Of a stretch of 64,000 bases of DNA, positions 2,183-40,233 are shown piece after piece; within the stretch, counting starts at the first letter, position 1; each line of letters begins with the position of its first letter. The DNA is from an uncultured Bacilli bacterium (lineage in GTDB: Bacteria; Bacillota_I; Bacilli_A; RF39; UBA660), in the NCBI GenBank assembly GCA_910579455.1, contig CAJTUT010000005.1, positions 1,593-65,592 of the forward strand, read 5' to 3'. The position numbers and the translations under genes are program-made. The notes beneath the pieces were generated by a model. That model was given only the letters and a program-made list of their open reading frames with translations. It had not been told where the DNA came from and searched no databases.

Positions 2183-3158
2183 TTTTTAATTCCTCCTTAT
2201 AATGAATCAATACTTGCATTATATCATGAATATCAGAACATTGATATACCCTATTTTTAATTTCGTTTGTACCTTTAAGACCTTTTAAATACCAACCAAT
2301 ATGATTCCTTATTTCTAATCGAACTATTTTTTCATCCTTCATCTGTTGTAAATAAGTAATATGTTTTAAACACATATCAATTCTACTTTCTATTGTTGGC
2401 CTTTCTAAAAGCTTATTTTCCTCTAACAGAGCAACAGTTTCCCTAATTAACCAGGGATTACCTAACACTCCCCTTCCTATCATAACAGCATCACACCCTG
2501 TCTCCTCTATCATTCTCTTGGCATCTATTGCACTTTTGACATCTCCATTTCCAATAACAGGAATATGAACTGACTTTTTAACATCTTTTATAATAGTCCA
2601 ATCTGCACTACCACTATATCCCTGCGCTCTTGTTCTGGGATGAATACAAATAGCACTTGCTCCTGCTTTTTCTATAACCTTTGCTACTTCAATAGCATTT
2701 ATACTATTACTATCCCAACCACTTCTAATCTTAACAGTAACAGGAATAGGTACCGTTTCCACTACTGATTTTACAATATCATAAATCTTTGTTGGCGATT
2801 TCAAAAGGGCAGATCCAGCTTGTGCCCTTACTGCTACCTTGGGAACTGGACATCCCATATTAATATCAATAATATCAGGATTCATGTGCTCGTAAATATA
2901 CTTAGCTGCGATTACAAAACTTTCAACATCTGTACCAAATATTTGTTGAACAATAGGCCTCTCTTCATCTGTCATATAAAGCATATCAATTGTTTTTTTG
3001 TTTCCATACATAATCGCCTTATCGCTAACCATTTCGGCATAAACAAGACCACAACCCATTTCCTTAGCAATTCTTCTATACGCCGAATTAGAAATTCCTG
3101 CCATTGGAGCTAAAATAACCTGATTTTTAATTTTTACATTACCTATATTCCATTCCAT
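2175..3158 (-). CDS. dusB: tRNA-dihydrouridine synthase B
   Basis: TIM-barrel Dus signature (ILAPMAGISN, CPVPKV, NGD). The track ORF begins at TTG at 3203; I prefer the internal ATG (MEWNIGNVK), which is preceded by a GAAGAGGGA RBS. Confidence 0.85.
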   Translation of the reverse strand: MEWNIGNVKIKNQVILAPMAGISNSAYRRIAKEMGCGLVYAEMVSDKAIMYGNKKTIDMLYMTDEERPIVQQIFGTDVESFVIAAKYIYEHMNPDIIDINMGCPVPKVAVRAQAGSALLKSPTKIYDIVKSVVETVPIPVTVKIRSGWDSNSINAIEVAKVIEKAGASAICIHPRTRAQGYSGSADWTIIKDVKKSVHIPVIGNGDVKSAIDAKRMIEETGCDAVMIGRGVLGNPWLIRETVALLEENKLLERPTIESRIDMCLKHITYLQQMKDEKIVRLEIRNHIGWYLKGLKGTNEIKNRVYQCSDIHDIMQVLIHYKEELKNG

Positions 3159-3624
3159 ATCTTTTCCCTCTTCAAAGCAATCATAGTATACTACAAAAAA
3201 CAAGCTTTTTCAAATAAAAAAGAGAGTAAATTTTACGTATATTTTTATTAATTCTCAAATGTCTTTATAAACTTTATTTATAGTGGTTTAAGATATTTTT
3301 ATTTTTGTAAGATATTTACATATATTTTTATGATCTCTTATATTTTCGCTTTCAAAAGTAGTAAATTGAACTTAAAAAATTACAAATCAGTCTTTAAATA
3401 AGGATTTTTAATAGCTGATTAATACTTTTAACTTAAAAATAAGATACCAAATTTAAAAGACATAATATTTAAAAAAGTATTTACTAGAAACAAAATTTTA
3501 AGTATAAGTAATTTCTATATCGTTATCAAAAAATTTTTTCCAATTTATGTAAAGAGTATCAATATTACTGTAATATCTGCACTTCCTACTGGAAAGAACA
3601 AAAGTATTAAACAAAAACAATATT

Positions 3625-3673
3625 GTACAAAACGATAAAAAAAGAGTTAGACTTAACTAAATATCTAACTCTT
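3625..3673 (-). terminator. Rho-independent terminator of ftsH (hairpin AGAGTTAG...CTAACTCT, then U-run on the minus strand), overlapping the ftsH stop codon
   Basis: 8-bp inverted repeat at about 3643-3650 and 3666-3673; on the minus strand it is followed by TTTTTTTATCGTTTTG. Confidence 0.6.
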
Positions 3674-5633
3674 TTAATAACTCGGATTTATTCATTTTTG
3701 AATAATTCTTAATTCCTCTTTCTTTTGCAAGTTGTTTTAATTTAGTAACAGACATTTTCTCAAGACTTGTTGCATCCTCATCTGATGGCATTTTTCCATG
3801 CTCTACTAAATAATCTATTTGCTCTTTAGTAAGAGTTTCGTATTCAAGCAATGTCTCCGCTATTAATTTTAATAATTTTTTATTTTTCTTAATAATTTCC
3901 ATTGCCTTTTTATGACAGTCATCGATAATTTTTCTCATTTCCATATCAATTTCATTAGCCACTTCATTAGAAAAATGTTGACTTTTATTATAATCTCTTC
4001 CTAAAAACACACTACCTTCTTGTTGTTCAAATTGTAAAAGTCCCAGATCACTCATTCCATATTCTGTAACCATGGAACGTGCAATCTTAGTTGCCTTTTC
4101 AAAATCGTTATGTGCACCTGTTGTAATTTCTCCAAAAACAATTTCTTCTGCTGTACGCCCTCCTAATAAACCAGTGATTTGTTCTAATAAATCTGTCTTT
4201 GTAGAACATAATTTTTCTTCACTTGGGACCATCATGTTATATCCTCCAGCAGCTCCACGTGGAATAATTGTAACCTTTTGAACATCATTTGCATTATCTA
4301 ACTTTAACCCAATTACCGCATGCCCTGCTTCATGATAAGCAACTAATTTACGGTCATTATCACTATATTTATGAGAGGTTTTAGCAGGTCCCATAAGTAC
4401 TCTATCTGTTGCTTCATCTATTTCGCTCATAGTAATTATTTCCTTGTTTCTCCTAACCGCTAAAAGAGCTGCTTCATTTAATAGATTTTCTAAATCCGCT
4501 CCACTAAATCCTGGAGTTCTTTTTGCCAAATTTTTCAATGTTATTCCTTGGGCCAATTTCTTATTCTTTGAATGTACTCCCAATATTTCCTCTCTTCCCT
4601 TAACATCAGGTAAGTTCACAGTCACCTGGCGATCAAATCTTCCTGGGCGAAGAAGTGCTGGATCTAATACATCTGGTCTATTGGTTGCTGCAATAATAAT
4701 GATTCCTTCATTTTCCCCAAAACCATCCATTTCTGTCAACAATTGATTTAAGGTTTGTTCTCGTTCATCATGACCTCCACCTAAACCTGTACCTCTTTGA
4801 CGGCCAACTGCATCAATTTCATCAATAAAAATTAGACATGGTGCATTTCTTTTAGCCTGCTGAAACATATCCCTAACACGACTAGCTCCAACACCTACAA
4901 ATAGTTCAACAAAGTCAGAACCACTAATAAAATAGAACGGAACATTAGCCTCTCCCGCTACTGCTCGAGCTAATAAAGTCTTACCTGTTCCTGGAGGTCC
5001 AAATAATAGAACCCCCTTTGGAATCCTAGCCCCTAATTTTTGAAATTTCTTTGGACTCTTTAAAAAGTCAATTAACTCTGCTACTTCTTCTTTTTCTTCT
5101 TGTAAACCAGCGACATCATTAAAAGTAATTTTATTATTACTACTACTTAATTTTGCCTTACTTTTTCCAAAATCCATAGAACTCTTGTTTCCAGCCAGTT
5201 GTCGATTAAAAAAGAAGAATGCAAAGGCAATTAACAAAACAAAGGGTAAGACATTTACAACAATCATTAAGAATGTTGAACTTTCTGGATCTGCTTTTGC
5301 CTCTAATTTAAAATCTTGTACCTCTGATGCCTCCACTATTTTTTTCATAACAGCATCACTCATCGGAAGTCTGGCAAAGAACGTTTGAGACTTTTTAGCA
5401 CCTTTCAAAGATCCTGTGACCTCATATGTCTTAGCATTATCTCTAGCTGTAATAACTAAGTTTTTAATATTCCCCTCGGTTAATTCTCCAATGAACTCAT
5501 TATAAGTAAGATTTTGAATATCTGTATTCATAACATTAAATACATAAAACACACCTATAATAATTAAAAACATAAAAAGATAAGGAACTAAACCCTTTTT
5601 TACATTTTTTTGATTTACAATATTTTTATTCAT
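3657..5633 (-). CDS. ftsH: ATP-dependent zinc metalloprotease FtsH
   Basis: 658 aa; N-terminal TM; AAA Walker A GPPGTGKT, second region of homology; HEAGH zinc motif; C-terminal extension. Confidence 0.95.
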
Positions 5634-5646
5634 ATTTTTGCCTCCT

Positions 5647-6963
5647 CTAACAATATTTCATTATTATATCATACTTTTCTTGTTTTTGTTTATCAAATTT
5701 TGATTTTTTTAACCCAGGTATCCAAAGAATCTTTCCCTCTGAATCTACTACAATAGGCCATGTATCTCTTTGTTCTATCTTTATCTTATTCTCAATAAAA
5801 ATATCTTTTACCTTTTTCTTACCATTTAATCCCTTAACAGCTATTTTATCTCCAATTTTTCTCGTTCTAATAATGATCGGTAATCGTATCTCTTCACTGC
5901 ATAATCTACAAATATTATTGGAAGTTTCCTCTGTTTCCTCCATCTTTTTAATATGATGTTTATTTGGAAGATCTGCATAGGTATTGAACTCTATTTCATA
6001 TTCTGTAATCTCATCCATTTCTCTAGTTAAATAAAATTCATCATAACTTTTAATAGCTAAAACTTCATTTGGCAAATTTACTTCCAAATTAGACTTATCA
6101 CTATAAATCAAATAAAGCAATAAATCAATATGTTTATCATTAACCAATACCAAATCATCCTGATAAAAATCCTCTAGTATATAATATAGTATTTCTTTTT
6201 GAATATACCTATCCAACCTCTTAAAATCTAAAACATTGATTCTCCCTTGCTTGGTTAAAATTTTTTTTAAGGATTGATCCCTTTCTTTAGAAATATATCG
6301 ACTGGTTTCCTCTAAATTTTCACTAAACTTCAAAAATTTTAAATGAACATTTTCGTCTTCTTCTTTCAAAAAAGGTAAGACATTCTTACGATACCTATTT
6401 CTAGTATATTTCATTTTATGATTTGACTCATCGATGAAATAAGGAACATTATTCAAGGAATCATATGCCTCCAAATCCTCTTTGCTATAACCAATTAAAG
6501 GTCTTATAATTTTATAATCACCCATATCAATTTCTTTATGAAATCCGCTATACCCCTGGAGATTAGATCCTCTTACAATTCTCATTAAAATAGTCTCTAT
6601 CAAGTCATCGCCATGATGAGCGGTCACTAAATAATCGGCCTTATATTTATGAACAACATCTTCAAAAAAATGATACCTTATATTTCTTGCCTCATTATGA
6701 AAGTTATCATCACTATACTTTTCTATTTTCATTTTTTCTAACACAATTTGATTTTTTATACAATACTCTTGTATAAATGCTTCTTCTTCTGCACTCTGCC
6801 TTCTAACATTATGATTCACATGAGCACAAATTAATTGTAACTGATACTTCTCTCTAAGCTTTAATAAAGCATCCATTAAACACATAGAATCAGGACCTGT
6901 AGAACATCCAACTACTATAATATCTTCATTTTTTAATTCTATATTTTTCTCTATATTAATCAT
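5647..6963 (-). CDS. tilS: tRNA(Ile)-lysidine synthetase
   Basis: 438 aa; N-terminal PP-loop VVGCSTGPDSMCL; conserved position immediately upstream of ftsH. Confidence 0.85.
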   Translation of the reverse strand: MINIEKNIELKNEDIIVVGCSTGPDSMCLMDALLKLREKYQLQLICAHVNHNVRRQSAEEEAFIQEYCIKNQIVLEKMKIEKYSDDNFHNEARNIRYHFFEDVVHKYKADYLVTAHHGDDLIETILMRIVRGSNLQGYSGFHKEIDMGDYKIIRPLIGYSKEDLEAYDSLNNVPYFIDESNHKMKYTRNRYRKNVLPFLKEEDENVHLKFLKFSENLEETSRYISKERDQSLKKILTKQGRINVLDFKRLDRYIQKEILYYILEDFYQDDLVLVNDKHIDLLLYLIYSDKSNLEVNLPNEVLAIKSYDEFYLTREMDEITEYEIEFNTYADLPNKHHIKKMEETEETSNNICRLCSEEIRLPIIIRTRKIGDKIAVKGLNGKKKVKDIFIENKIKIEQRDTWPIVVDSEGKILWIPGLKKSKFDKQKQEKYDIIMKYC

Positions 6964-8132: not shown

Positions 8133-8411
8133 CTAAGCCTCTTCTTCTGTTAATTCCTCTGCATTATTATACGCATCAATGATAGCTTCTTCAAACATTG
8201 ATCTAACCTCAGGATTAATTGGGTGTGCGATATCTCGGTAGCCCCCTGTTGCGGTTTTTCTACTTGGCATTGCAATAAACAATCCATTATCCCCTTCTAT
8301 AACACGAATATCATGAACTGCAAAACTATCATCTAATAATACAGATGCAATTCCCTTCATACGTGATCCTTCTTTTTCAATTTTACGTACATTTACAGAT
8401 GTAATCTTCAT
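8133..8411 (-). CDS. spoVG: Septation/sporulation regulator SpoVG
   Basis: [11 protein letters not shown]...[33 protein letters not shown] is near-identical in pattern to B. subtilis SpoVG. Start moved to the internal ATG, which has an AAGGAGG RBS (track ORF starts at 8441). Confidence 0.9.
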
Positions 8412-8484
8412 GTATGTTCCTCCTTCTTTAAAGTATTTCACTTTATAAATTTATTTTATACTACTATTAAAAAAATTGCAATAT

Positions 8485-8718
8485 TTATTTTTTTAGTGCA
8501 ATCTCTTTAATTTCTAAACTATTTGTTAATATATCATTATAACTAAATGACTTCACTCTATTAGTATAATCCAAAACCTTTATAATAAATATGGAACGAT
8601 ACACTTCTACAATTCTACCAGAAAATTCTTCTGTCTGATTTCTAGCACCTTTAAATTTAAAAGAAAATATTTTTCCCTGATTCTGAGTAATAAAACTTCT
8701 AATCTTACTTATATTCAT
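8485..8718 (-). CDS. veg: Veg family biofilm/sporulation-associated small protein
   Basis: 77 aa; SFSYNDILTNSLEI matches the Veg core SYSYADILT..VE; position next to yabG/ksgA as in B. subtilis. Confidence 0.75.
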   Translation of the reverse strand: MNISKIRSFITQNQGKIFSFKFKGARNQTEEFSGRIVEVYRSIFIIKVLDYTNRVKSFSYNDILTNSLEIKEIALKK

Positions 8719-9503
8719 CTTGGATACCCCACATACATTGTTCCATCTGTAATAATACCACCAATACCATCAGCACCATATTTAGTTTTTTCAATTAAAG
8801 ATATTAAATCAATACTTTTATTTCTAACTGATAAAGCAATAGAAGAGGCTATAATAGCAGGGTCCAACGCGTGAATATTAATTCTTTTAGGACTAGATGC
8901 AAAATTAGCTCCTGCCTTAATCAATTCTTCATAATCAGACTGACAAGCTCCTGAAATAACAATTAGTTTGTTTTGATCCTTTTCATATTTCCTTGCTACT
9001 TTAATAGCTTTAATAAAGTTCTTAGAATTTTGATAGTTTTCAATATTGTTCATATCATTTCTTTTTTTATAATAGGCATCATGGCCCGTAATCACTAAAA
9101 TATCCGGATTATACTCATTTAAATATTGATCAATGTATTTATAGACCTCAGATTCCTTTAACGTGATTCCATATGCTTTTACATTTAAGTCCCGGTAAAA
9201 ATTAATACATCTTTCTAAATATTCCTCATCCCCATCAATGTGCAAAATTTTTCCAGGTAAGTAAAAATATTCTGATCTATCTAGATGAAGACTTTTTAAA
9301 TTTTCATTAATAATCTCTCTATCAGATTTCGATATATTTGGCTTTTTATCCTCCTTTACTAAATCCTTTAATTCACTATCAGCATATAACCTTAACTCAA
9401 TTCCCTTTAAAATAGCTGTACCTTCAGTTATATCAATTATTTTAAATAGAATATCATGATTATAAGACTTTCTACTTACAATATCTCCTACCTTTAAATT
9501 CAT
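8715..9503 (-). CDS. yabG: Sporulation-specific protease YabG
   Basis: 262 aa; YabG family (N-terminal MNLKVGDIVSRKSY..ILFKI; C-terminal GADGIGGIITDG); next to ksgA as in Bacillus. Confidence 0.8.
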   Translation of the reverse strand: MNLKVGDIVSRKSYNHDILFKIIDITEGTAILKGIELRLYADSELKDLVKEDKKPNISKSDREIINENLKSLHLDRSEYFYLPGKILHIDGDEEYLERCINFYRDLNVKAYGITLKESEVYKYIDQYLNEYNPDILVITGHDAYYKKRNDMNNIENYQNSKNFIKAIKVARKYEKDQNKLIVISGACQSDYEELIKAGANFASSPKRINIHALDPAIIASSIALSVRNKSIDLISLIEKTKYGADGIGGIITDGTMYVGYPR

Positions 9504-9548
9504 AAAATCATCTCCAACTAATTTTATGAATAAAAAAAGAAAATATGA

Positions 9549-10340
9549 CTAATCTAGATGATTGCATATTTCTATAAAAACCTCTACAGGTAATTTTTCG
9601 GACCTATCCGTTAGATCAAAACCATACCTCACTAGTACCTGCTCTATCTTCTCCAAATTATACTGTTTTAAATTATTTCTAATATTTTTTCTTTTATATT
9701 GAAAACTATCCCTTATTAATTGAAAAAACAATCTTTTATTTTTTAAAGGAATTCTGTTCTTTCTTTTCGTTAAAGAAACAATCTCACTATCTACCTTAGG
9801 TTCTGGTGTAAACATCTTTCTATTTACTTTAAACTCTCGCTTAATATGATAATAATAATTTAATAACACAGTAATTGATCCATAGCTTTTATTTCCTGGC
9901 TTTGCACTAAATCTTTCTCCAACTTCTTCTTGAACCATGATTACAATTTTTGTAAAATCAATCTTAGAATCCAATAATTTTATAAGAATAGGCGTCGTAA
10001 TATAATAAGGTACATTACTAACAAAATAAATAAAATCTTTATTATACTTTTGAATATCTTTTTCAATATCTCTTTTTAAGAAATCATCAAATATAACATC
10101 AACATTATTATAGTCTTGTAACCCTTCTTTTAAATACTGCTGTAATTCGAGATCTATTTCATAAGATAAAACACTTCCCGAAACTTTTGATAATTGTTTT
10201 GTTAAAATTGCTCTACCAGGACCGACTTCAATAACCAAAGAATTTTTTTCTATACAAGCTGCGTCTACTATTTTTTTTACCAAATTTGTATCTGTCAAAA
10301 AATTTTGACCATACTTTTTTTTAAAATGAAATGTCTCCAT
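9549..10340 (-). CDS. rsmA: 16S rRNA (adenine1518/1519-N6)-dimethyltransferase
   Basis: 263 aa; GQNFL motif, SAM-binding VIEVGPGRAILT, NVPYYITTPI. Confidence 0.9.
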   Translation of the reverse strand: METFHFKKKYGQNFLTDTNLVKKIVDAACIEKNSLVIEVGPGRAILTKQLSKVSGSVLSYEIDLELQQYLKEGLQDYNNVDVIFDDFLKRDIEKDIQKYNKDFIYFVSNVPYYITTPILIKLLDSKIDFTKIVIMVQEEVGERFSAKPGNKSYGSITVLLNYYYHIKREFKVNRKMFTPEPKVDSEIVSLTKRKNRIPLKNKRLFFQLIRDSFQYKRKNIRNNLKQYNLEKIEQVLVRYGFDLTDRSEKLPVEVFIEICNHLD

Positions 10341-10438
10341 ATCTTCACCAACTTATTACGAATAATTCTTTATCTATTATACATGAATCTTTAAAAATTA
10401 GATACACTTAACAATTTTTCCAATAAAAATATAGAAAG

Positions 10439-10930
10439 TTATAAAACCTCTATATTAGAATCACTATTAGAATTGATAGTAACTTTTTTTACTAAGGTAC
10501 TTTCAGAATGATCTTCCTTTTCATGAATCATAAAGAAAATATTTCCAATAGATAACCCATATAGTAATACCTTCATAAACGATAAAAAATCATTAAAGTA
10601 GGAAAAGTTAATCCCATAACCCATAATTTGATTTAGTACCATGTTTTTATCAATAATTGCTCTAATCCCCACTACTATTATAGTAGTAAATACCAAACAA
10701 CAAGTCAAATTATAAAATAAATTTTTACTTACACTTTTCTGCTTTAAAATAATATTAACCATAAACAATATTAAAATGAGTATATAAGGAATAAACAAAC
10801 TAGCAGATTCTAACAAATTTTTATTTACTCTATCATACATAGATAAAATAATATAAAAGGTAATAGCAAAAGAGGAAAGTAGTAAAATCCATTTTAATAT
10901 AAAGAATAAACCGTTCAATATTTTTTTCAT
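10439..10930 (-). CDS. Polytopic membrane protein, last gene of the SipW operon
   Basis: 163 aa; 4-5 predicted TM helices; start overlaps the stop of the upstream ORF (10930/10932). Confidence 0.5.
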   Translation of the reverse strand: MKKILNGLFFILKWILLLSSFAITFYIILSMYDRVNKNLLESASLFIPYILILILFMVNIILKQKSVSKNLFYNLTCCLVFTTIIVVGIRAIIDKNMVLNQIMGYGINFSYFNDFLSFMKVLLYGLSIGNIFFMIHEKEDHSESTLVKKVTINSNSDSNIEVL

Positions 10931-10931
10931 C

Positions 10932-11624
10932 TTATACCCCTCCTACTACATTTTTATACCAAACAGATAAATCATAAATAAAATCAATAGAAGAAACATA
11001 ATTATTTAAAATACTATAATAACTATCTTTGATGGGATTATAGATATCTACCTTAGATATCTCACTATTAAAATAGTAACTACTATTATTCTTAATCACT
11101 TTTTGGACATAATCTGTCGAATTAATTAATTGATTAATTTGATTTTCAAAAAAAGGTGCGACTGTTGGTAAGGAGGTTATATTTAATTTATTATTTTCAG
11201 TTAATGAAATCTCATATAACTGTTTAACTAGGCATTCATTCGAAATTTGTACTTGATAAAATTGTTGCATATTATAAATATCTTTCATATCTACATTTTT
11301 TTTTGAAATAAGAGTGTCAAACTCCTCTGTATTAATCTTTTTTGTACAAATATCCAATCTTGACTTTACACTAGACAAACTATAGGGATCCTCACTTCCT
11401 CTATAAGTATTCATATCAAATCCTGAGGTGTTTTCTGTAATCAAACTCAACTTATTTTTTAATTCTTGACCGATTTTCATTTCAGTATCCTGTTTTACAT
11501 AAGTTTCATTCACATTACGATAATGATAAAAATTTAAAAATAGCAAGAAAAAACCAAATCCAAATACCAATCCAGTAACTGCATAAGCAATAATATTAGA
11601 ATACTCTATCAATAACTTTTTCAT
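10932..11624 (-). CDS. N-terminally membrane-anchored hypothetical protein in the SipW operon
   Basis: 230 aa; single N-terminal TM (IIAYAVTGLVFGFGFFLLFL) then a Asn/Ser/Tyr-rich soluble domain; 17 bp downstream of sipW. Confidence 0.5.
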   Translation of the reverse strand: MKKLLIEYSNIIAYAVTGLVFGFGFFLLFLNFYHYRNVNETYVKQDTEMKIGQELKNKLSLITENTSGFDMNTYRGSEDPYSLSSVKSRLDICTKKINTEEFDTLISKKNVDMKDIYNMQQFYQVQISNECLVKQLYEISLTENNKLNITSLPTVAPFFENQINQLINSTDYVQKVIKNNSSYYFNSEISKVDIYNPIKDSYYSILNNYVSSIDFIYDLSVWYKNVVGGV

Positions 11625-11641
11625 ATTCCCTCCCTATTCTT

Positions 11642-12400
11642 CTAAATAACTTCAATATCATCATCACCTTTATCATGTTCTTTTTTATCTTCTCTTATAT
11701 TAATAAACTCAATATATTCCCTTTGTTGTTGATCTTTATCATTTTTCTTATTTGGACCAGATGACCTTTTTATAGACTTTGATAACTTTATTATATCGTA
11801 TATTACAAGTCCTACACAAGGAATAATAATAATAAATACCCATCCATAAACGTTAGTTAAAAGTTGTTGCAAATATCCAATTTTTGGAATCTTAAAAATA
11901 ACCTTCCCACAGATATTTTTATAAGAAACCAAGGTCGAATCTTCCGCGTTATTATTATCTCCTTTTGTTCTAAAATATAAATCTCCCTTTTTAGATTTTT
12001 CTATACCAACAATCCTATGTGTAATCGTTAACCCTGAATATCTAGGATCAGTTGATAAAAAGGTTATAATATCCCCCACTTTTAATTCACTAGCTTCTTT
12101 TCTTTGAATTAATATAGCATCCTCTACCTTGATAGTCGGAACCATACTGGGACTAATAATTATATAAGCCCCAAACAATGGCCTTTTGGTAACTCCATTT
12201 TTCATATTTTTGTGAATATCAATAAAATATAAGGCGAATAGTATCATAATTATTACCAAAACAAAAACTAAAAAATATAAAAATATTTTAGATAATAATT
12301 GATATATTTTATGGATCACTGGAATGATTTTTTTATTTGATTTTTTGGATCTTTCATCCTGATTAAATTCATCCATTGTTGCATCCACGTAAAAAGCCAC
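11642..12400 (-). CDS. sipW: Signal peptidase I, archaeal/eukaryotic type (SipW-like)
   Basis: 252 aa; TM then catalytic core IISPSMVPTIKVEDAILIQRKE ... ITHRIVGI, typical of the SipW/Sec11 type (Ser/His); second C-terminal TM. Confidence 0.8.
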   Translation of the reverse strand: MAFYVDATMDEFNQDERSKKSNKKIIPVIHKIYQLLSKIFLYFLVFVLVIIMILFALYFIDIHKNMKNGVTKRPLFGAYIIISPSMVPTIKVEDAILIQRKEASELKVGDIITFLSTDPRYSGLTITHRIVGIEKSKKGDLYFRTKGDNNNAEDSTLVSYKNICGKVIFKIPKIGYLQQLLTNVYGWVFIIIIPCVGLVIYDIIKLSKSIKRSSGPNKKNDKDQQQREYIEFINIREDKKEHDKGDDDIEVI

Positions 12401-12477
12401 CTCCTATTATTGTATACTAAGTATATAATATCATGATTTTAAAAAAAATCCAACAAAAAAAGAGGATAACCCTTCCT

Positions 12478-13092
12478 TTATTCAGCCATATCTGCTTGAA
12501 CATCCACCCTTATTTTAAATGTTCTTGCTACCTCATCACTCGCATAATCAGAGCTCAACCACATTCTCAAAACAAAACTATGTGATTGATTCTTTCGTTG
12601 AGAAGTTGTATTTATAAATTTTCCAGTATGATATAGTACCCTTTCATTAAGATCATCCTTGTAGACATCTAAAGAATTAAAATTTGTAGGAGATAATACT
12701 GGTTGATATTGACTACCCTGCTTCCTTTCTAAATAAAGTCTTACATACTTCCCATCTAAAGGTTCTTTTTTACTTACCCCTGTAATATTTCTTGCAATAA
12801 TTTTGTAATTAATTTGAGTTGATCCCATTATTTCAGAAGAAATCTTGAAATCAAAATATTCCATTTGTTTCATTCCAACTTCATCTGGTGTTGGCATCGC
12901 ATTTGTAATTGTCATAACATTACTAACGCCTTCTGTATATGACATGGAAATTGTTCCAGTATTTACTACATTTTCCTTTTTTGAATGGAAAGTATAAGTA
13001 AATACTGCATATGAAATACCCACTACTGCCACAACTAAAATTGCGATTCCTAATACTGATAATAACATTTTCTTTGAATCCGTTTGTTCCAT
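12478..13092 (-). CDS. SipW-cognate secreted protein, paralog 3 (possibly TasA/camelysin-like)
   Basis: 204 aa; N-terminal signal/TM (LLSVLGIAILVVAVVGISYAVFTY); shares SMSYTEG, NAMPTPDEVG, YFDF, VRLYL, LRMWLS with the two upstream paralogs. Confidence 0.6.
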   Translation of the reverse strand: MEQTDSKKMLLSVLGIAILVVAVVGISYAVFTYTFHSKKENVVNTGTISMSYTEGVSNVMTITNAMPTPDEVGMKQMEYFDFKISSEIMGSTQINYKIIARNITGVSKKEPLDGKYVRLYLERKQGSQYQPVLSPTNFNSLDVYKDDLNERVLYHTGKFINTTSQRKNQSHSFVLRMWLSSDYASDEVARTFKIRVDVQADMAE

Positions 13093-13101
13093 TTTATCAC
13101 C

Positions 13102-13719
13102 CTATTCACTAACCTTAACACCTAATTTAGCTTTAAAAGTTAAACTTTCTTCACTAACAGGATAATCTTTAGAAAGCCAAAATCTTAATCTAATCCTTTG
13201 AGAGAAAGAGTTAGTAAAAGATTGTCTATAAATTAACTTTCCATTTGAATTTGCACTAGAGTCCGCTAAAGATCTAAAAGTAGTAACTCCACTTAATGCT
13301 CTTTCTGTTCCTTCTCCATCTGTAATATAGACTTTAATATATCGCTCATCTATTTGGGTCCCTGTAGAAGTATTAAGAGCATAAATCTCATAAGCTCCTC
13401 TACAATTATCCTCCTTAGTTCCCTTGCATTCACAATTAAGTGTTGCATCATAATATCCTTGATCATAACCATCAATAGCACCTGCAGATAATTTTTTTCC
13501 CACCTCATCTGATATTGGAAAAGCAGACTTAATAGAGATTAATGGCCCCTCATTAAAAGTACAACTAATAGCTCTTGTACTAATAACATTTCTTGTTTCT
13601 CCACTTTTTCCATAAAAGAATACTGCATAAGTTCCACCGACAATGACTAAAATTAACATTAAGATGAATAATAAAACGGGAACTATTTTTTTTCTTTCCT
13701 TCTTTTCTTCCATATTCAT
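13102..13719 (-). CDS. SipW-cognate secreted protein, paralog 2 (Cys-containing variant)
   Basis: 205 aa; signal/TM VLLFILMLILVIVGGTYAVFFY; conserved SAFPISDEVGKKL, IKVYI, LRFWLS; an extra CxC...C cluster. Confidence 0.6.
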   Translation of the reverse strand: MNMEEKKERKKIVPVLLFILMLILVIVGGTYAVFFYGKSGETRNVISTRAISCTFNEGPLISIKSAFPISDEVGKKLSAGAIDGYDQGYYDATLNCECKGTKEDNCRGAYEIYALNTSTGTQIDERYIKVYITDGEGTERALSGVTTFRSLADSSANSNGKLIYRQSFTNSFSQRIRLRFWLSKDYPVSEESLTFKAKLGVKVSE

Positions 13720-13727
13720 TCTCCTCT

Positions 13728-14336
13728 TTATACAATTTTTCCATATACATTAATTTTAATTGCATAAGTTTTAACATCCTGTATTAAAGCATTTTCATTA
13801 ACCCACATTCTTAAACGATAATTATCAAACCCACTTTTTTCGGATCTCACTCTTTTTAATACCATAGAATTAATAGGTGACCCTATATCGGTTTTTTCCT
13901 TAATAGGTTCAAATGCTTTTGGTTCTACTAGCTGTTCATATGTTCCATTAACTTGTTTTTCTAAATAAACTTTTATATCTTGGTCAGGAATCGTACAATC
14001 AGCTTCCTTAATAGCAGCGATTTCATAAGTAATTGGTTGATCCTTTACAACAGTAGTTCTCACCGTAAAATCAAAGTATTCTCCTGGAGCATTTAAAGCT
14101 TTTCCTACATCATCACTAACAGGTGAGGCATTTTCAATAAAAATACCATTCTTACTTTCTGTATAAGTCATACTTACATTACCTTCATGATCCTCATTTG
14201 ATTGTTTTACCTGCTCCTGCTTTACAAAGGCTGTAAAAGAAATACTAATAACTGTAAAAACTAAAATTGTAATTACAATAAGAGAGATAATAACCTTCCT
14301 AGAATATGTTTTTTCCTCTATTTCTCTATCTTTCAT
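13728..14336 (-). CDS. SipW-cognate secreted protein, paralog 1
   Basis: 202 aa; TM IISLIVITILVFTVISISFTAF; conserved SMTYTE, NASPVSDDVGKAL, YFDF, IKVYL, LRMWV; first gene of a tight operon with 8-9 bp gaps. Confidence 0.6.
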   Translation of the reverse strand: MKDREIEEKTYSRKVIISLIVITILVFTVISISFTAFVKQEQVKQSNEDHEGNVSMTYTESKNGIFIENASPVSDDVGKALNAPGEYFDFTVRTTVVKDQPITYEIAAIKEADCTIPDQDIKVYLEKQVNGTYEQLVEPKAFEPIKEKTDIGSPINSMVLKRVRSEKSGFDNYRLRMWVNENALIQDVKTYAIKINVYGKIV

Positions 14337-14391
14337 TTGAATACCTCCCTTTTAATTTAACGAATATACTCCTATTTAAACATTATCATAA

Positions 14392-15147
14392 TTATAGTTT
14401 TAAGTCAAATAATTCATAGCAATTATTTGTCGTTATTTTTCCTATTTCTTCTATTGGAATATTTTTTATCTCTGAAATTTTTTGAACAATAAAAGGAATA
14501 TACTTTGAACTATTTTTCTCACCCCTAAATGGATGTGGCGTTAAATAGGGACTATCAGTTTCTAGCACAAGATGTTCGACAGAAAGTTTTTCTACAATAC
14601 GATCCAATTTACTATTTTTAAAGGTCAAAACACCCCCTATTCCTAATTTATATCCCATTTTTATATAAGTGTTAGCAGTCTCCAAACTACCAGAAAAACA
14701 ATGAATAATTCCTCTTAAATGATATTGATTTAAAATATCAATTGTATCTTTGGTTGCATCTCTACTATGAATAACAACTGGTAAGTCCAACCTCTGTGCT
14801 ATAGATAGTTGTTTTCCAAATAGTTCTTTTTGCTTTTCTTTATTAGTAGGATAATGATAGTCCAAGCCTATTTCCCCAATACCAACAATCTTTCTATTTT
14901 GTATGATTAAATTTTCTAATTGATCAAGATCGTTATCACAAACTTTATCTATTTGATCTGGATGAAACCCAAATGTCGCAAAAAGAGAATCATAAGAATT
15001 TAATAACTGGATTGATTCTTCAATATCTTCTTTTTCACAACAGGAAAAAATAATAAGTTTCACATTATTCTCTATGGAATCATTTATTACAGAATCAATA
15101 TCATCATAATATTTTTTTAATATATGACAATGTGTATCGATAAACAT
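14392..15147 (-). CDS. tatD: TatD-family metal-dependent DNase (YabD)
   Basis: 251 aa; MFIDTHCH start, GEIGLDY, HSRDA, ETDSPYL motifs; follows metG as in B. subtilis. Confidence 0.9.
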   Translation of the reverse strand: MFIDTHCHILKKYYDDIDSVINDSIENNVKLIIFSCCEKEDIEESIQLLNSYDSLFATFGFHPDQIDKVCDNDLDQLENLIIQNRKIVGIGEIGLDYHYPTNKEKQKELFGKQLSIAQRLDLPVVIHSRDATKDTIDILNQYHLRGIIHCFSGSLETANTYIKMGYKLGIGGVLTFKNSKLDRIVEKLSVEHLVLETDSPYLTPHPFRGEKNSSKYIPFIVQKISEIKNIPIEEIGKITTNNCYELFDLKL

Positions 15148-15443
15148 AAAAACACCTCATACTTAGAGTAAAATAAAAAAATATCAGTGTCAATGATATT
15201 TTATGCATCACTACGTTTGTGTATTTTTATCCTAATGTAATTCACTGTGACTAATACAAAATATAACATATCTAAATAACTCTTTGTATTCACAATAAAT
15301 ACAAAAAATATAATAGCAAATAATAAATAAAAGCTATCTAAATTCATAAATTTAAAAATCCTCGCTTGTATCTCATCATCTTGCATAAATAACACCTGCC
15401 TCCTTCTTAAAATTTACTACAAACTACCCTTAAAAATATATCA

Positions 15444-15478
15444 TAAAAAAATAGGAAACGATAATCAAATTTTCCTAT
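15444..15478 (-). terminator. Rho-independent terminator downstream of metG
   Basis: Inverted repeat ATAGGAAA(15451-15458)/TTTCCTAT(15471-15478); on the minus strand it is followed by a TTTTTTTAT run. Confidence 0.55.
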
Positions 15479-15509
15479 CTTTACAAACTTAGACAAGTTT
15501 TTACTATTA

Positions 15510-17021
15510 CTATTTTTCTATTCTTTGAAACAAGGGAGAAGGATTACCTAACTGATACTCATTATCGAAGATAAATTGAAAATCCACCTTATTATTATTT
15601 ATTTGCTTTAGTATTTTTTTGCTAGTAGTTGGCAAAAAAGATTGTAATAAAATTGCACAAATTCGAATTGATTCCAATAAATTATAAATTACTGTTTCCA
15701 ACCTTTGTTTTTGAGTCTCCTCCTTAGCTAAAATCCATGGTGTTGTCTCATCAATATATTTATTTGCTTTTCTTAACACTTCAAAAATAGATTCTAAAGC
15801 TTCACTAATGTGCAATTGATTCATCTTATTTTCTACCTCATCATATAAATCATTAATTGAGTTCAAAAAGGTCTCATCCACAGTATCTATAACGTTCTTA
15901 TTAGTAATAATTCCAGAAAAATATTTATTTCCCATTGAAATCGTTCTTTGTACTAAATTTCCTAAATTGTTTGCTAAATCGGAATTAATTCTTGCGACTA
16001 AAGAGTCCTCAGAAAAGGAGCCATCATTTCCAAAGGGAACTTCCCTTAATACAAAGTACCTAATCGCATCTAATCCATATTTATCAATATATTCCCTGGG
16101 ATCCCTATAGTTTCCCAAAGATTTTGAGATTTTTTCGCCATTTACAACTAACCATCCATGACCAAAAACCTGTTTTGGTAGAGGAAGATTCAATGCCATC
16201 AACATAATTGGCCATACAATGGTATGAAATCTCACAATTTCTTTTCCAACTAAATGCAAATCAGCAGGCCAATATTTCCTAAATTCACTATCATCGTTAC
16301 CCAAGTATCCTAAGGAAGTAATATAATTAGTCAAAGCATCCAACCAGACATAAACCACGTGCTTTTTATCAAATGGAACCTGAATACCCCAAGTAAAAGA
16401 CGTTCTTGATACACATAAGTCTTCTAAACCTGGTTTAATAAAATTATTAATCATTTCATTCTTTCTAGATTCTGGCTGAATAAACTCTGGATGAGATTCA
16501 ATATACTCAACGAGCTGATCCTGGTATTTTGAAAGTTTTAAAAAATAAGCCTCCTCAGTTACTTCATGAACCTCCCGTCCACAATCGGGACAATTTCCAT
16601 CCACAACCTGAGTTTCCGTCCAAAAAGATTCACAAGGTGTACAGTAAAGACCTCGATATTCCCCCTTGTAAATATCCCCCTTTTCATATAGTTGAACAAA
16701 AATTTTTTGTACAGCTTGCTCATGAATAGCATCTGTTGTTCTAATAAACTTATCATATGAAATATCTAAATAATCCCATAAATCCTTAGAATTTTTAACA
16801 ATATGATCAACATATTCTTTTGGACTTATTCCTGATTCTTTTGCTTTATTTTCTATTTTTTGTCCGTGTTCATCTGTACCTGTTTGAAAACAAACATCGT
16901 AACCCTGTTGTCTTTTAAATCTTGCAATAGCATCTGCAATGATAGTAGTATAACAATGACCAATATGAAAATTAGCACTTGGATAATATATCGGTGTAGT
17001 AATATAAAATTTTTTATTCAT
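15510..17021 (-). CDS. metG: Methionine--tRNA ligase (short form, no C-terminal EMAP domain)
   Basis: 503 aa; HIGH motif (ANFHIGHCYT); zinc knuckle CPDCG; KMSKS variant KISKSLGN. Confidence 0.95.
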   Translation of the reverse strand: MNKKFYITTPIYYPSANFHIGHCYTTIIADAIARFKRQQGYDVCFQTGTDEHGQKIENKAKESGISPKEYVDHIVKNSKDLWDYLDISYDKFIRTTDAIHEQAVQKIFVQLYEKGDIYKGEYRGLYCTPCESFWTETQVVDGNCPDCGREVHEVTEEAYFLKLSKYQDQLVEYIESHPEFIQPESRKNEMINNFIKPGLEDLCVSRTSFTWGIQVPFDKKHVVYVWLDALTNYITSLGYLGNDDSEFRKYWPADLHLVGKEIVRFHTIVWPIMLMALNLPLPKQVFGHGWLVVNGEKISKSLGNYRDPREYIDKYGLDAIRYFVLREVPFGNDGSFSEDSLVARINSDLANNLGNLVQRTISMGNKYFSGIITNKNVIDTVDETFLNSINDLYDEVENKMNQLHISEALESIFEVLRKANKYIDETTPWILAKEETQKQRLETVIYNLLESIRICAILLQSFLPTTSKKILKQINNNKVDFQFIFDNEYQLGNPSPLFQRIEK

Positions 17022-17286
17022 TTTAATTCCTCCTAAAATAAAAATATTATAAATATAAGGACGAAAATATTTTCCGTGGTACCACCTTACTTTATAATAT
17101 TCTATTATACACTTAAATAGTTAACGCCTATCTACGATTATATTTACTTATCAATATAATAGTTCAAAAGCCATATTTTATAATTTTTTATACCTGTTCC
17201 CACCACACACAAGCTCTCTTCATAAAAATATTATAAAACTCTTTCTCATAACTTTTAAATATGGAAGTATTATATCACACTTTTTC

Positions 17287-17817
17287 TTATTCCTCAATAT
17301 GTTTACCTAAAAAATTGGAAGTTAAATTTGCCATTTTTACTTCAGTGTCTGTAATACTGTCGTTTAAAGAAAAGATTACTACTGCACCAACAATATCACC
17401 ATTTGTTAAAATAGGAGTTAAAGTATAAGAGCAATTTTCTTTTATTCCCTCTACAAACTCCACCTCTATTTTATCTTTCTCTATTACTAACTCTCTATTA
17501 CTTAACTTCTGTTCTAAAAACTTAGAAATACTATTACCAAGATATTTTGATTTTAAATTTCCAGAAATAGAAATGACTTTGTCACGATCAGTAATCAAAA
17601 CATCTTTTGATATTACCTGGTTAATCGTATTTACAAGATCATCTGAAAGATCATTTAAATCGGACATAGATGAGTACTTTTTTAAGGCTATCATTTCATC
17701 TTCTACAAAAATTTCAAGAGATTCTCCATCGCGAATTCGTAATGTTCTTCTCATTTCCTTGGGAATAACAATTCTTCCTAAGTCATCAATTCTTCTTACT
17801 ACACCAGTTGTTTTCAT
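17287..17817 (-). CDS. spoVT: Stage V sporulation protein T (AbrB-N plus GAF)
   Basis: 176 aa; N-terminal swapped-hairpin AbrB domain VVRRIDDLGRIVIPKEMRRTLRIRDGESLEIFV, then a GAF-like region; length and architecture of SpoVT. Confidence 0.85.
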   Translation of the reverse strand: MKTTGVVRRIDDLGRIVIPKEMRRTLRIRDGESLEIFVEDEMIALKKYSSMSDLNDLSDDLVNTINQVISKDVLITDRDKVISISGNLKSKYLGNSISKFLEQKLSNRELVIEKDKIEVEFVEGIKENCSYTLTPILTNGDIVGAVVIFSLNDSITDTEVKMANLTSNFLGKHIEE

Positions 17818-38486: not shown

Positions 38487-38786
38487 GATTCATCAATCAC
38501 CATTAGTGTACATGAAATTGTTGAAAAAATAAATAGGAAAGCAATATTTTTTTTTATTCACAATATATTAACATATTTATTCACAACCTAAATATATTAA
38601 TATATATAGAAAAAATAAATTTTCCACATTTTCCACAAATTTTAATAAACAACTGTTAGTTATCTTTTCCACAAGATTGTGGAAAATGTGGAAGAATGAT
38701 TTTATAGAAAAATATCTACTTTTCATTGACAAAATAAGGAATTTATTATTATAATAATGTAGATTTATGTCTGGAGGTGGAAAAAT
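38487..38786. promoter_or_regulatory. oriC upstream region with multiple DnaA boxes and the rpmH promoter
   Basis: TTATTCACA x2 (38554-38562, 38577-38585), TTTTCCACA x3 (38620-38628, 38629-38637, 38665-38673), TGTGGAAAA (38678-38686), TGTGGAAGA (38687-38695); each is within 1-2 mismatches of TTATCCACA. Confidence 0.8.
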
Positions 38787-38909
38787 ATGAAAAGAACATA
38801 TCAACCAAACAATCGTAAGAAATCAAAAAAACATGGTTTTTTTGCACGTAAATTAACAAATATATTAAAATCTCGTCGTAAAAAGGGACGTAAAAGACTT
38901 TGTAAATAA
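38787..38909 (+). CDS. rpmH: 50S ribosomal protein L34
   Basis: 40-aa [43 protein letters not shown] (not in the ORF track because it is under 60 aa); GGAGGTGG RBS; directly upstream of rnpA. Confidence 0.85.
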
Positions 38910-38961
38910 TCCACAAGGTGAAACTAGTGGGTTTTTCTGTCTATAGATTGGGGCTATTTTC

Positions 38962-39294
38962 ATGAAAAAAAGAGATATTGTAAAAGATAAAAAAGATTTT
39001 ACAAACATTATAAAAACAGGAAAAAAAATTAGCAATCGTAGTTTTGTAATCTACTATAAAAAAAATATGAAAGATCATAGTCGATATGGAATATCTGTAG
39101 GAACTAAGTTAGGAAATGCTGTATTTAGAAATAAATATAAAAGAAGAATTAGGATGTTAATAACAGAAAATCAAAGTCTATCTAATAAGAAAAAAGATTA
39201 TATTATCTTATTAAGAAAAAATGCTAAAGATTTAGAATTTCAAGAATTAAAAAAAGATTTGAATCAATTATTTAGTAAGTTAAAGGAGTTATAA
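38962..39294 (+). CDS. rnpA: Ribonuclease P protein component
   Basis: 110 aa, highly basic; typical rpmH-rnpA-yidC order. Confidence 0.85.
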   Translation: MKKRDIVKDKKDFTNIIKTGKKISNRSFVIYYKKNMKDHSRYGISVGTKLGNAVFRNKYKRRIRMLITENQSLSNKKKDYIILLRKNAKDLEFQELKKDLNQLFSKLKEL

Positions 39295-40233
39295 ATGAAA
39301 AATAAAAAAACAAAAATTACTTTAGTCATATTATTTTCGTTAATTCTATTAACAACAGGTTGTACAAAGACTTTAACTGATAAAAAAAATAAACCAGTAA
39401 AAAATGAAGTTACTGGTCAAAATTTAACAGAAAATATATTATGTAAACCTACCTCTAAAAAGGTTCAAAAGATTTATATAAAAAATGGAGTTAAAATTAA
39501 TCAGTTACCCACTTGTGAAAAATTTAAAGTTACAAGTGGTAAATATGAGGGTTTATGGACATCAATATTCGTAAAACCATTATCCTTTATTCTGTTAAGA
39601 CTAGGAATACTTCTAAAGAATAATTTTGCTTTATCTTTAATTATTATTAGTTTGATTATTAGACTTATAGCCTATCCATTTACGAAAAAAACAGCAATGC
39701 AATCAGAATTAATGAAAAAAGCTCAACCAGAACTTGCCAAAATTCAAAATAAATATAAAGATAAGCAAGATCAAGATTCAATGATGAGACAAAGCCAAGA
39801 GATGATGGCTGTTTATAAAAAGTATAGTATTAGTCCGATGTCTGGTTGTCTATTTTCTATGATTCAACTTCCTTTATTCATAGCCTTTTTTGAAGCGGTA
39901 CAAAGAACTCCCGCAATTTTTGAGGGAAAATTTTTAGGACTTCAATTAGGAACTACACCAGCAGTTGGTTTTGGAACAAGTGGAATTATTGCTTATGTTA
40001 TATTAATGATTTTAATAGCGGCAACAACTTTTTACTCTTTTAAATTGAATATGACAGGAAATTCCTTGGATGATAATATGAAAATGATGCCATTAATGAT
40101 GAGTGGAATGATTATTGTAATGGCTCTATTTATGCCATCAGCATTAGGAATTTATTGGGTAACTACAAATTTATTTACAGTATTTCAAAACTTATTAGTA
40201 AAAAGGAGTAAAGGAAAAAATGGAAAAGCATAG
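39295..40233 (+). CDS. yidC: Membrane protein insertase YidC (lipoprotein type, SpoIIIJ/YidC2-like)
   Basis: 312 aa; lipobox LLTTGC; 60-kDa IMP core with conserved helices; the ATG follows the rnpA stop. Confidence 0.9.
   Translation: MKNKKTKITLVILFSLILLTTGCTKTLTDKKNKPVKNEVTGQNLTENILCKPTSKKVQKIYIKNGVKINQLPTCEKFKVTSGKYEGLWTSIFVKPLSFILLRLGILLKNNFALSLIIISLIIRLIAYPFTKKTAMQSELMKKAQPELAKIQNKYKDKQDQDSMMRQSQEMMAVYKKYSISPMSGCLFSMIQLPLFIAFFEAVQRTPAIFEGKFLGLQLGTTPAVGFGTSGIIAYVILMILIAATTFYSFKLNMTGNSLDDNMKMMPLMMSGMIIVMALFMPSALGIYWVTTNLFTVFQNLLVKRSKGKNGKA

Follow-up and report, generated by a model that had tools for sequence, protein, structure and literature searches.

Among the systems closest to the locus described here, three are known from two bacteria and one archaeon. 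The tapA-sipW-tasA operon of Bacillus subtilis, the source of the TasA biofilm fibre (PF12389/NF046066; structures 5OF1 and 8AUR), encodes SipW, a signal peptidase of the endoplasmic reticulum (ER) type, together with secreted beta-sandwich substrates; TasA, first described as spore-coat associated, uses residues 28-38 as its donor strand, and residues 39-61 rearrange during assembly (PMC9674648). The sipW-bsaA-bsaB-bsaC cluster of Clostridium perfringens likewise encodes SipW and paralogous secreted subunits. Its SipW substrate BsaA donates residues 28-38, forms oligomers that are membrane-anchored prior to cleavage (PMC7395162, PMC11580942), and yields a strand-exchange polymer with an N35-K74 isopeptide lock catalysed by E56 (PMC11580942). 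The AbpA/AbpB bundling pili of Pyrobaculum consist of a subunit of ~200 residues with a Sec signal and a jellyroll variant that assembles by donor-strand exchange; its operon also encodes uncharacterised transmembrane (TM) proteins and a larger accessory subunit, and AbpA is related to PF12389 at 97% by HHpred (PMC9245690). Here we describe a six-gene operon in a stretch of 64,000 nucleotides (the window) from an uncultured Bacilli bacterium (GenBank assembly GCA_910579455.1, contig CAJTUT010000005.1, positions 1,593 to 65,592, forward strand), which encodes three tandem paralogs (P1, P2 and P3), a SipW-like signal peptidase and two membrane proteins (M1 and M2). We estimate the probability at about 0.55 that this locus specifies a SipW-dependent surface fibre, either pilus-like or a matrix polymer, made of novel beta-sandwich subunits of ~205 residues. 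A fibre or pilus-like product had been suggested in a first-pass annotation made from the sequence alone, and it remains the best reading.

The six co-directional open reading frames (ORFs) lie on the minus strand at 10439-14336 between tatD and rsmA/ksgA, where the first-pass annotation had placed them (Table 1). The spacing that it gave, gaps of 8-17 bp and one overlap, has to be corrected, as the gaps from P1 to M2 are 8, 9, 77, 17 and 1 nt and there are zero overlaps. Among the six proteins, only the peptidase was recognised by Pfam or NCBIfam models. It scores 104.1 bits with the ER/archaeal-type model TIGR02228 (cutoff 51.85) and only 25 bits with the bacterial-type model TIGR02227 (cutoff 47). 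Its residues S85 (in SPSM), H128 (in THR) and D148 (in GDNN) align with the motifs of B. subtilis SipW, and the SPSM, THR and GDNN..D motifs are invariant among 64 peptidase orthologs. The enzyme is of the Ser/His SipW type and not of the bacterial Ser/Lys type, as had been proposed on the basis of SMVPT and HRIVGI motifs, both of which are present (the latter within THRIVGI). The catalytic roles are assigned after the SipW mutagenesis reported by Tjalsma et al. in 2000. Moreover, a comparison of the peptidase with B. subtilis SipW gives 34% identity (E 5e-23), human SEC11A/C are the only PDB entries related to it by sequence, and it has TM segments at its N- and C-terminus. Its most upstream start codon, GTG at 12400, sits within the Shine-Dalgarno sequence AGGAGGTG (window 12388-12410), so that GTG at 12388 is the likelier start, which would give a protein of 248 residues. 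No work tying SipW to these lineages was found in the literature searched.

P1, P2 and P3 are true paralogs, as was noticed at first, with a mutual identity of 25-31% and BLASTP E values of 2e-22, 5e-27 and 9e-12. The charged N-terminus and hydrophobic segment ascribed to them were confirmed, and the core motifs quoted for them are present, although P2 departs from these motifs (SCTFNE, YYDA and IKVYI). For comparison with relatives, one genome per GTDB species was scanned, which gave 79 related loci (labelled L001 etc. below); ORFs were called in the retrieved loci and searched with the window proteins. P3 has a canonical and near clade-invariant signal peptide, SKKMLLSVLGIAILVVAVVGISYA/VF (the slash marks the predicted cleavage site in this and the following motifs), and an arm that runs ..KENVVNTGTISMSYTE. 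It is a candidate for the major subunit, and it is 100% identical to HFJ12_00205, a "hypothetical protein" of a Bacilli bacterium known from a metagenome-assembled genome (MAG). P2 has a predicted cleavage site GGTYA/VF and carries C54 in the arm strand as well as C95, C97 and C105. This Cys cluster, which had been pointed out before, is real, since all four Cys are kept in 7 orthologous sequences (the window, L007, L008, L009 and L001-3). The P1 start codon is preceded, 8 nt upstream, by the strong Shine-Dalgarno sequence AAGGGAGG, and the N-terminal signal-anchor of P1 ends in ISFT/AF. When the N-termini are compared with those of relatives, the arm of P1 is polar and divergent (VKQEQVKQSNEDHEGN) and precedes the conserved SMTYTE strand, which makes P1 a candidate for an arm-poor terminal or anchor subunit. 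Sorting of the sortase type has no counterpart here: the paralog C-termini (...NVYGKIV, ...LGVKVSE and ...VQADMAE) have neither LPXTG nor a C-terminal TM segment, and the operon has no sortase gene.

The N-termini of the paralogs can be aligned with that of TasA. The TasA sequence compared here agrees with 8AUR and 5OF1; A28 is the first residue of the fibre chain in 8AUR, which puts the cleavage at GGGTWA/AF. hhalign sets S27-Y-A29/V30-F31 of P3 on T25-W-A27/A28-F29 of TasA, and pairs ..N-x-[IV]-x-T-G-T-I-S-M of the P proteins with ..A-T-F-A-S-G-T-L-D-L of TasA. The S-[FY]-A/x-F site of the paralogs is aligned in this way with the experimentally known TasA site, under a common pattern [ST]-aromatic-A/x-F, and the cleavable signal sought in the paralogs is predicted at this place. 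Furthermore, conservation falls from signal to arm to body along an almost equal gradient in both families (P family: 0.87 for the signal h/c region, 0.71 for the arm and 0.52 for the body; TasA family: 0.85 for the signal, 0.72 for the arm and 0.50 for the body). To our knowledge, a discarded signal peptide as the most conserved segment is peculiar to the class of SipW substrates. Judged from the alignment, the counterpart of the donor and rearranging segment of TasA would be the conserved and poorly modelled residues 30-54 of P.

The same hydrophobic segment, being the most conserved region, could also be retained as the core helix of an archaeal-type filament similar to type IV pilins. Some matches go in this direction, namely Pilin_N for 4 of 56 P members (best 0.007), Arch_flagellin for the P-like protein D described below (0.087) and the Sulfolobus pilin 6NAV (E 5.7), the only match of the P profile among PDB sequences, but all of them are below significance. 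The paralog N-termini have no cleavage motif of G or A before a hydrophobic residue and no E5, so that the class III (type IV pilin) signal proposed for checking at first is not supported, and the peptidase of the operon belongs to type I, with Ser/His catalysis. In addition, neither the operon nor its immediate surroundings contain a gene for a prepilin peptidase, an assembly ATPase or a PilC-like protein, whether in the window or in about 60 related loci. We consider a pilin-like filament very unlikely.

Searches with P1, P2 and P3 gave zero matches at E<=1 against Pfam and NCBIfam, and a word-indexed search returned 192 homologs, none of which is named. An exhaustive profile search, which covered 1.84 billion cluster representatives at 50% identity, found 5,924 clusters at E<=1e-3, 2,926 at E<=1e-10 and 554 at E<=1e-30. 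The P family is large, has no Pfam or NCBIfam model and is previously undescribed. No homolog of P3 was found by tblastn in plasmid and phage collections. Many members of the family have 400-1,743 residues and begin with the P module, and their C-terminal extensions contain Big_2 and Listeria-Bacteroides (Flg_new) repeats or, in others, unannotated domains. Extensions of such repeats are a typical adhesin architecture. This fusion of the module to adhesin repeats in other family members is a difference from the TasA system. P-family genes outside the operon, at L068:5135-7474 and in L042, adjoin genes for polysaccharide deacetylase and for NAGPA (phosphodiester glycosidase), a possible sign of a link to the processing of surface glycans.

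The AlphaFold2 (AF2) model of P3, built on a 56-sequence alignment, has a helix at residues 4-27, a stretch at 28-53 with a predicted local distance difference test (pLDDT) score <50, and an all-beta sandwich at 54-202 with a pLDDT of about 90. The fold of the paralogs is a beta-sandwich in this model. Foldseek of the model against the PDB returned generic jellyroll/sandwich matches only, with the PapG pilin domain among the weak ones.

If the locus makes a fibre, P1-P3 would be exported by Sec but would stay attached to the membrane by their unusually conserved signal peptide, and the ER-type signal peptidase of the operon would cut them behind S-[FY]-A (between A29 and V30 in P3). The freed arm of ~25 residues (..N41..T45-G-T-I-S-M-x-Y-x-E54) would add a strand to the sandwich of an adjacent subunit, and donor-strand exchange as in TasA, BsaA and AbpA would lead to a homo- or heteropolymer; the model of membrane anchoring before cleavage put forward for BsaA also fits the P system. 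Arm-poor paralogs, P1 here and the membrane-anchored D in most relatives, may cap or anchor one end, and M1 and M2 may act together as a membrane platform or chaperone. Proteins in which the P module is fused, elsewhere in these genomes, to Big_2, Listeria-Bacteroides repeats or other domains could be incorporated, and adhesins could be displayed in this way. The link between subunits is possibly locked covalently, by an isopeptide bond involving N41, E54 and K74 or by disulfides in the P2 subclass. Among 257 P sequences, N41 of the arm is present in 250 (97%), E54 in 236 (92%) and K74, which is not invariant, in 196 (76%), while D is mostly without the donor-side N. In a comparison with the published residue numbers of BsaA, this is no more than suggestive of a BsaA-like isopeptide triad. 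Disulfide locking would be possible in the P2 subclass.

The locus differs from the described systems in several respects. It shares with the TasA system the presence of more than one related substrate (TasA/TapA versus P1-P3/D), but the domain body is without detectable homology, mature P has about 175 residues versus 234 in TasA, the arrays of 1-7 paralogs and M1 and M2 have no TasA-system counterpart, and the operon occupies a housekeeping position throughout the clade, whereas the TasA operon is under the control of SinR. Unlike the BsaA system, the P operon is without a von Willebrand A protein, a two-component system and nearby type IV pilus genes. The archaeal Abp locus has no dedicated signal peptidase, and the relation to PF12389 that is detectable for AbpA (97%) is not detectable for P (16%). 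Chaperone-usher and type V pili also have strand-complemented Ig-like/sandwich subunits as well as adhesin-bearing and terminator subunits; the P system has no chaperone, usher or outer membrane and no homology to them.

The 77-nt spacer between P3 and the peptidase gene contains a hairpin, a U-run and a Shine-Dalgarno sequence. A clearer hairpin with a T-run, followed by extended -10-like sequences, lies between the last paralog and the SipW gene in more than 20 relatives. A consensus terminator scan of 8400-17300 called nothing, the hairpin after P3 being seen by folding and by comparison with relatives. It is a candidate for a terminator- or attenuator-like element that separates the subunit genes from the peptidase and membrane genes. 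Hairpins are usually placed in this way behind the gene of a structural subunit that is produced in larger amounts than its machinery.

M1 has a TM helix at 2-38 and a helical-bundle ectodomain in its AF2 model. Its conservation is highest in the TM and juxtamembrane segment, at two invariant Cys and in an NNSSYxF loop that is modelled with low confidence. The M1 model has no match in the PDB by Foldseek (best E 0.15), and no match was obtained with its sequence against PDB sequences and Pfam. M1 is a candidate assembly or anchoring factor. M2, which matches nothing in Pfam and NCBIfam, is translationally coupled to M1 by TAA-G-ATG, with the Shine-Dalgarno sequence inside the 3' end of M1. Over 41 species, the median identity to the window proteins is 62% for metG, 56% for tatD, 53% for rsmA, 51% for M2, 46% for SipW, 38-39% for P1/P3, 36% for M1 and 30% for P2. 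M2 is about as conserved as rsmA, and the exposed parts (P and M1, 36-39% identity) change faster than the housekeeping genes on either side (53-63%). By these values, M1 is no better conserved than P1 and P3.

All 79 loci come from MAGs of uncultured gut bacteria named Bacilli, 'Tenericutes', Candidatus Onthousia and 'Mycoplasma sp. CAG:611'. P, SipW, M1 and M2 stand between tatD and rsmA in 45 of the 45 non-redundant loci, each from a different species, that contain both flanks, with 1-7 paralogs before SipW (mode 4). Since the arrangement is the same in all of them, the operon is an ancestral syntenic feature of the clade and not a recent insertion, and to call it inserted between tatD and rsmA is misleading. 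Equally misleading is the statement that it replaces the yabE-rnmV segment of Bacillus, because 30 of the 45 relatives retain, directly after tatD and before the paralogs, a gene for a YabE-like 3D-domain protein (PF06725) of roughly 195 residues (e.g., L001:5363-5944). A profile search found no copy of this gene among all window ORFs, where it would fall in 14337-14391; its loss is shared by the window lineage, L007, L008 and a few others. Moreover, in 36 of the 45 loci a gene for a protein of roughly 180 residues, D, lies between SipW and M1 (e.g., L001:9435-9971 and L013:12243-12788), which is missing from the window (11625-11641). D is a divergent P paralog (hhalign 99.4%, E 9e-22) without the S-F-A-A-F site and the arm motifs, so that D is probably a version of the sandwich that stays uncleaved and anchored to the membrane. 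The loci without D (the window, L007, L008 and L012) start with a paralog of polar, divergent arm that resembles P1 of the window. The description of the product as made of three related subunits holds for the window, but this is a local state only, as relatives have 1-7 paralogs plus D.

The neighbours yabG, veg and spoVT, and the co-location of the operon with spoVG, would be compatible with a sporulation-associated structure such as a coat, crust or appendage, for which TasA, also known as CotN, is a precedent. These genes, however, belong to the standard origin-proximal order of Bacillus and do not form a sporulation island. In addition, yabG is trimmed to about 105-115 codons in L004/5, L025, L027, L036 and L078 and is absent after rsmA in L001, and the full operon is retained in these relatives. 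The fragments suggest that the spore-coat protease was lost in those lineages, and the persistence of the operon there makes a spore-specific role, including the spore-surface structure of the first-pass annotation, unlikely; we would give this explanation little weight. The cut-down yabG (L004:12819-13139, L025, L027, L036 and L078) is followed by a gene for a surface protein of 1,000-3,400 residues with Peptidase_M26 or dockerin matches.

Several points weigh against a fibre of the TasA kind. Polymerisation is deduced only indirectly, from the conserved arm and from the low pLDDT of the arm in the modelled monomer. hhalign of P against TasA or a 35-sequence TasA alignment gives a probability of 12-16% over the N-terminal ~60 columns only, and in column-shuffle controls the z value is 3.1 for the signal peptide and 2.2 for the mature arm, with nil for the body. 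TasA and AbpA are missing from the Foldseek top 50 for P3. A weak but recurrent tie to TasA is seen, on the other hand, in the model searches: among 18,950 NCBIfam models searched with 56 P members, the TasA model is the second most frequent weak match; NF046066 is weakly matched by 5 members (best 1.3e-3) and PF12389 by 1 (0.029), all sub-threshold, and TIGR04088, the model of SipW-dependent signal peptides, is matched by 2 of the 56 at E about 0.5. As the hhalign probability is low, the shuffle controls give nil for the body and the Foldseek matches are generic only, the P family is, in terms of sequence, no demonstrable member of the TasA/camelysin family PF12389; the membership considered at first went undetected, the window paralogs having no match and reaching 16% over the N-terminal 61 columns. 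Regarding the lock, the window P3 has M74-K75 in place of K74, and the N/E/K spacing differs from that of BsaA as judged from the published residue numbers. Furthermore, the peptidase may be either dedicated or the sole signal peptidase I of a reduced genome, and the count of 45 in 45, taken from loci retrieved via P similarity, says nothing on genomes without the operon.

The P proteins could instead be non-polymerising, as an abundant surface or secreted coat or as an attachment module for adhesins, with SipW as the general or only signal peptidase I and with M1 and M2 unrelated and merely syntenic. No fold or sequence link of P to a proven fibre protein was found, the operon occurs throughout the clade, surrounded by housekeeping genes and about 25 kb away from oriC, and in the P1-like protein P0251 a linker of 120 residues rich in S/N/G connects the hydrophobic segment to the sandwich, like a membrane-anchored stalk. 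The report that related orders are without sortases (PMC10868615) is in agreement as well, since another anchoring route would then be needed. On the other side, the signal peptide and N-terminus are the most conserved parts, as in TasA, which is unexpected if they are discarded or non-interacting, the tandem arrays of 1-7 paralogs and the additional arm-less one are what major, minor and terminal subunits would look like, and the arm is left unpacked in the AF2 monomer. We judge a non-polymerising role rather unlikely, and prefer the SipW-dependent fibre.

Table 1. Coordinates of the operon, its neighbours in the window and the poly-G tracts of a related genome (aa, amino acid residues; L-numbers, related loci)
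Feature	Position	Strand	Evidence or setting
P1, 202-aa paralog	13728-14336	-	ORF; family profile hmmsearch E 6e-65
P2, 205-aa paralog, four-Cys subclass	13102-13719	-	ORF; family profile E 4e-48
P3, 204-aa paralog	12478-13092	-	ORF; AF2 pLDDT 79.5
Hairpin and U-run, overlapping the P3 stop codon	12452-12482	-	RNA fold dG -10.6 kcal/mol, z -2.3
ER/archaeal-type signal peptidase I (SipW-like), 252 aa	11642-12400	-	TIGR02228
M1, bitopic membrane protein, 230 aa	10932-11624	-	AF2 pLDDT 83.5
M2, small polytopic membrane protein (about 4 TM), 163 aa	10439-10930	-	ORF
tatD	14392-15147		ORF; flanks the operon on the P1 side
rsmA/ksgA	9549-10340		ORF; flanks the operon on the M2 side
yabG	8715-9503		ORF; neighbour
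spoVT	17287-17817		ORF; neighbour
T-box leader, RF00230, 102 bits	17054-17258	-	Upstream of metG
Hydrophobic 64-aa ORF	15201-15395	-	Within the 360-nt metG-tatD spacer
dnaA	37077-38486		On the minus side, with dnaN, recF, gyrB and gyrA
Poly-G tracts	L011:8794-8802, L016:37-46 and 1934-1942, L029:6353-6361, L040:4440-4448, L044:69-78 and 2485-2492		
Poly-G tracts, continued	L051:69-78, L055:7449-7458, L072:5088-5096, L076:8794-8802		

The map of the window reads, from left to right, lysS, dus, ftsH, tilS ... veg, yabG, rsmA, the operon, tatD, metG, spoVT, mfd and pth, which is an origin-proximal gene order of the Bacillus type. The strand switch near 38.5 kb (about 38500-39300), with dnaA beside it, is likely oriC, and the operon would accordingly be about 25 kb away from the origin. 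The GC content is about 27% and there is no compositional break. The spacer between metG and tatD is similar in relatives (median 346 nt), a gene of 56 codons being called there in L004, and the ORF of 64 residues in the window spacer may be that of a small, conserved membrane protein. Between metG and veg, no site resembling a terminator was called.

The related MAG Lapin-012__bin84 has at least 11 copies of one gene type, whose products combine a signal peptide with a divergent P/D-like sandwich and with an unannotated domain; this domain, of ~400 residues, is 63-77% identical from copy to copy. The copies carry a poly-G tract of 8, 9 or 10 within the region coding for the signal peptide, ctaAT-G(n)-TTACTTACGCC. 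The one copy with n=8 is in frame, and the reading frame is shifted in the six with n=9 and the four with n=10. The pattern resembles slipped-strand phase variation of a multigene family of surface proteins, or a homopolymer assembly error. The longest G/C run in the window is <=6. A wider proposal, which we make only tentatively, is that this clade of genome-reduced gut Bacilli has a sortase-independent surface assembly in which a dedicated SipW would cut the P module (about 2,900-5,900 clusters), a strand-exchange polymer, perhaps with isopeptide or disulfide locks, would form on M1/M2 as a new membrane platform and serve as a shared carrier of diverse adhesin domains, and in some genomes the module would have diversified into multigene families with poly-G phase variation.

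The P subunit family and the two-protein membrane component would be new, and by analogy the system as a whole is somewhat more probably than otherwise a functional equivalent of the known TasA, BsaA and Abp systems. With thousands of clusters that lack a Pfam or NCBIfam model, the P family is worth a family definition of its own. If the fibre is real, the principle of TasA, BsaA and Abp, in which a Sec-exported and SipW-cut subunit is polymerised by strand exchange, would reach a new protein family, and a compact module of ~175 residues would be at hand for engineered self-assembling fibres. The Mycoplasmatales-related gut Bacilli are uncultured and abundant in animal and human guts. Some of their orders are reported to lack sortases (PMC10868615), and the operon is a concrete candidate for the adhesion or biofilm apparatus of these gut Bacilli.

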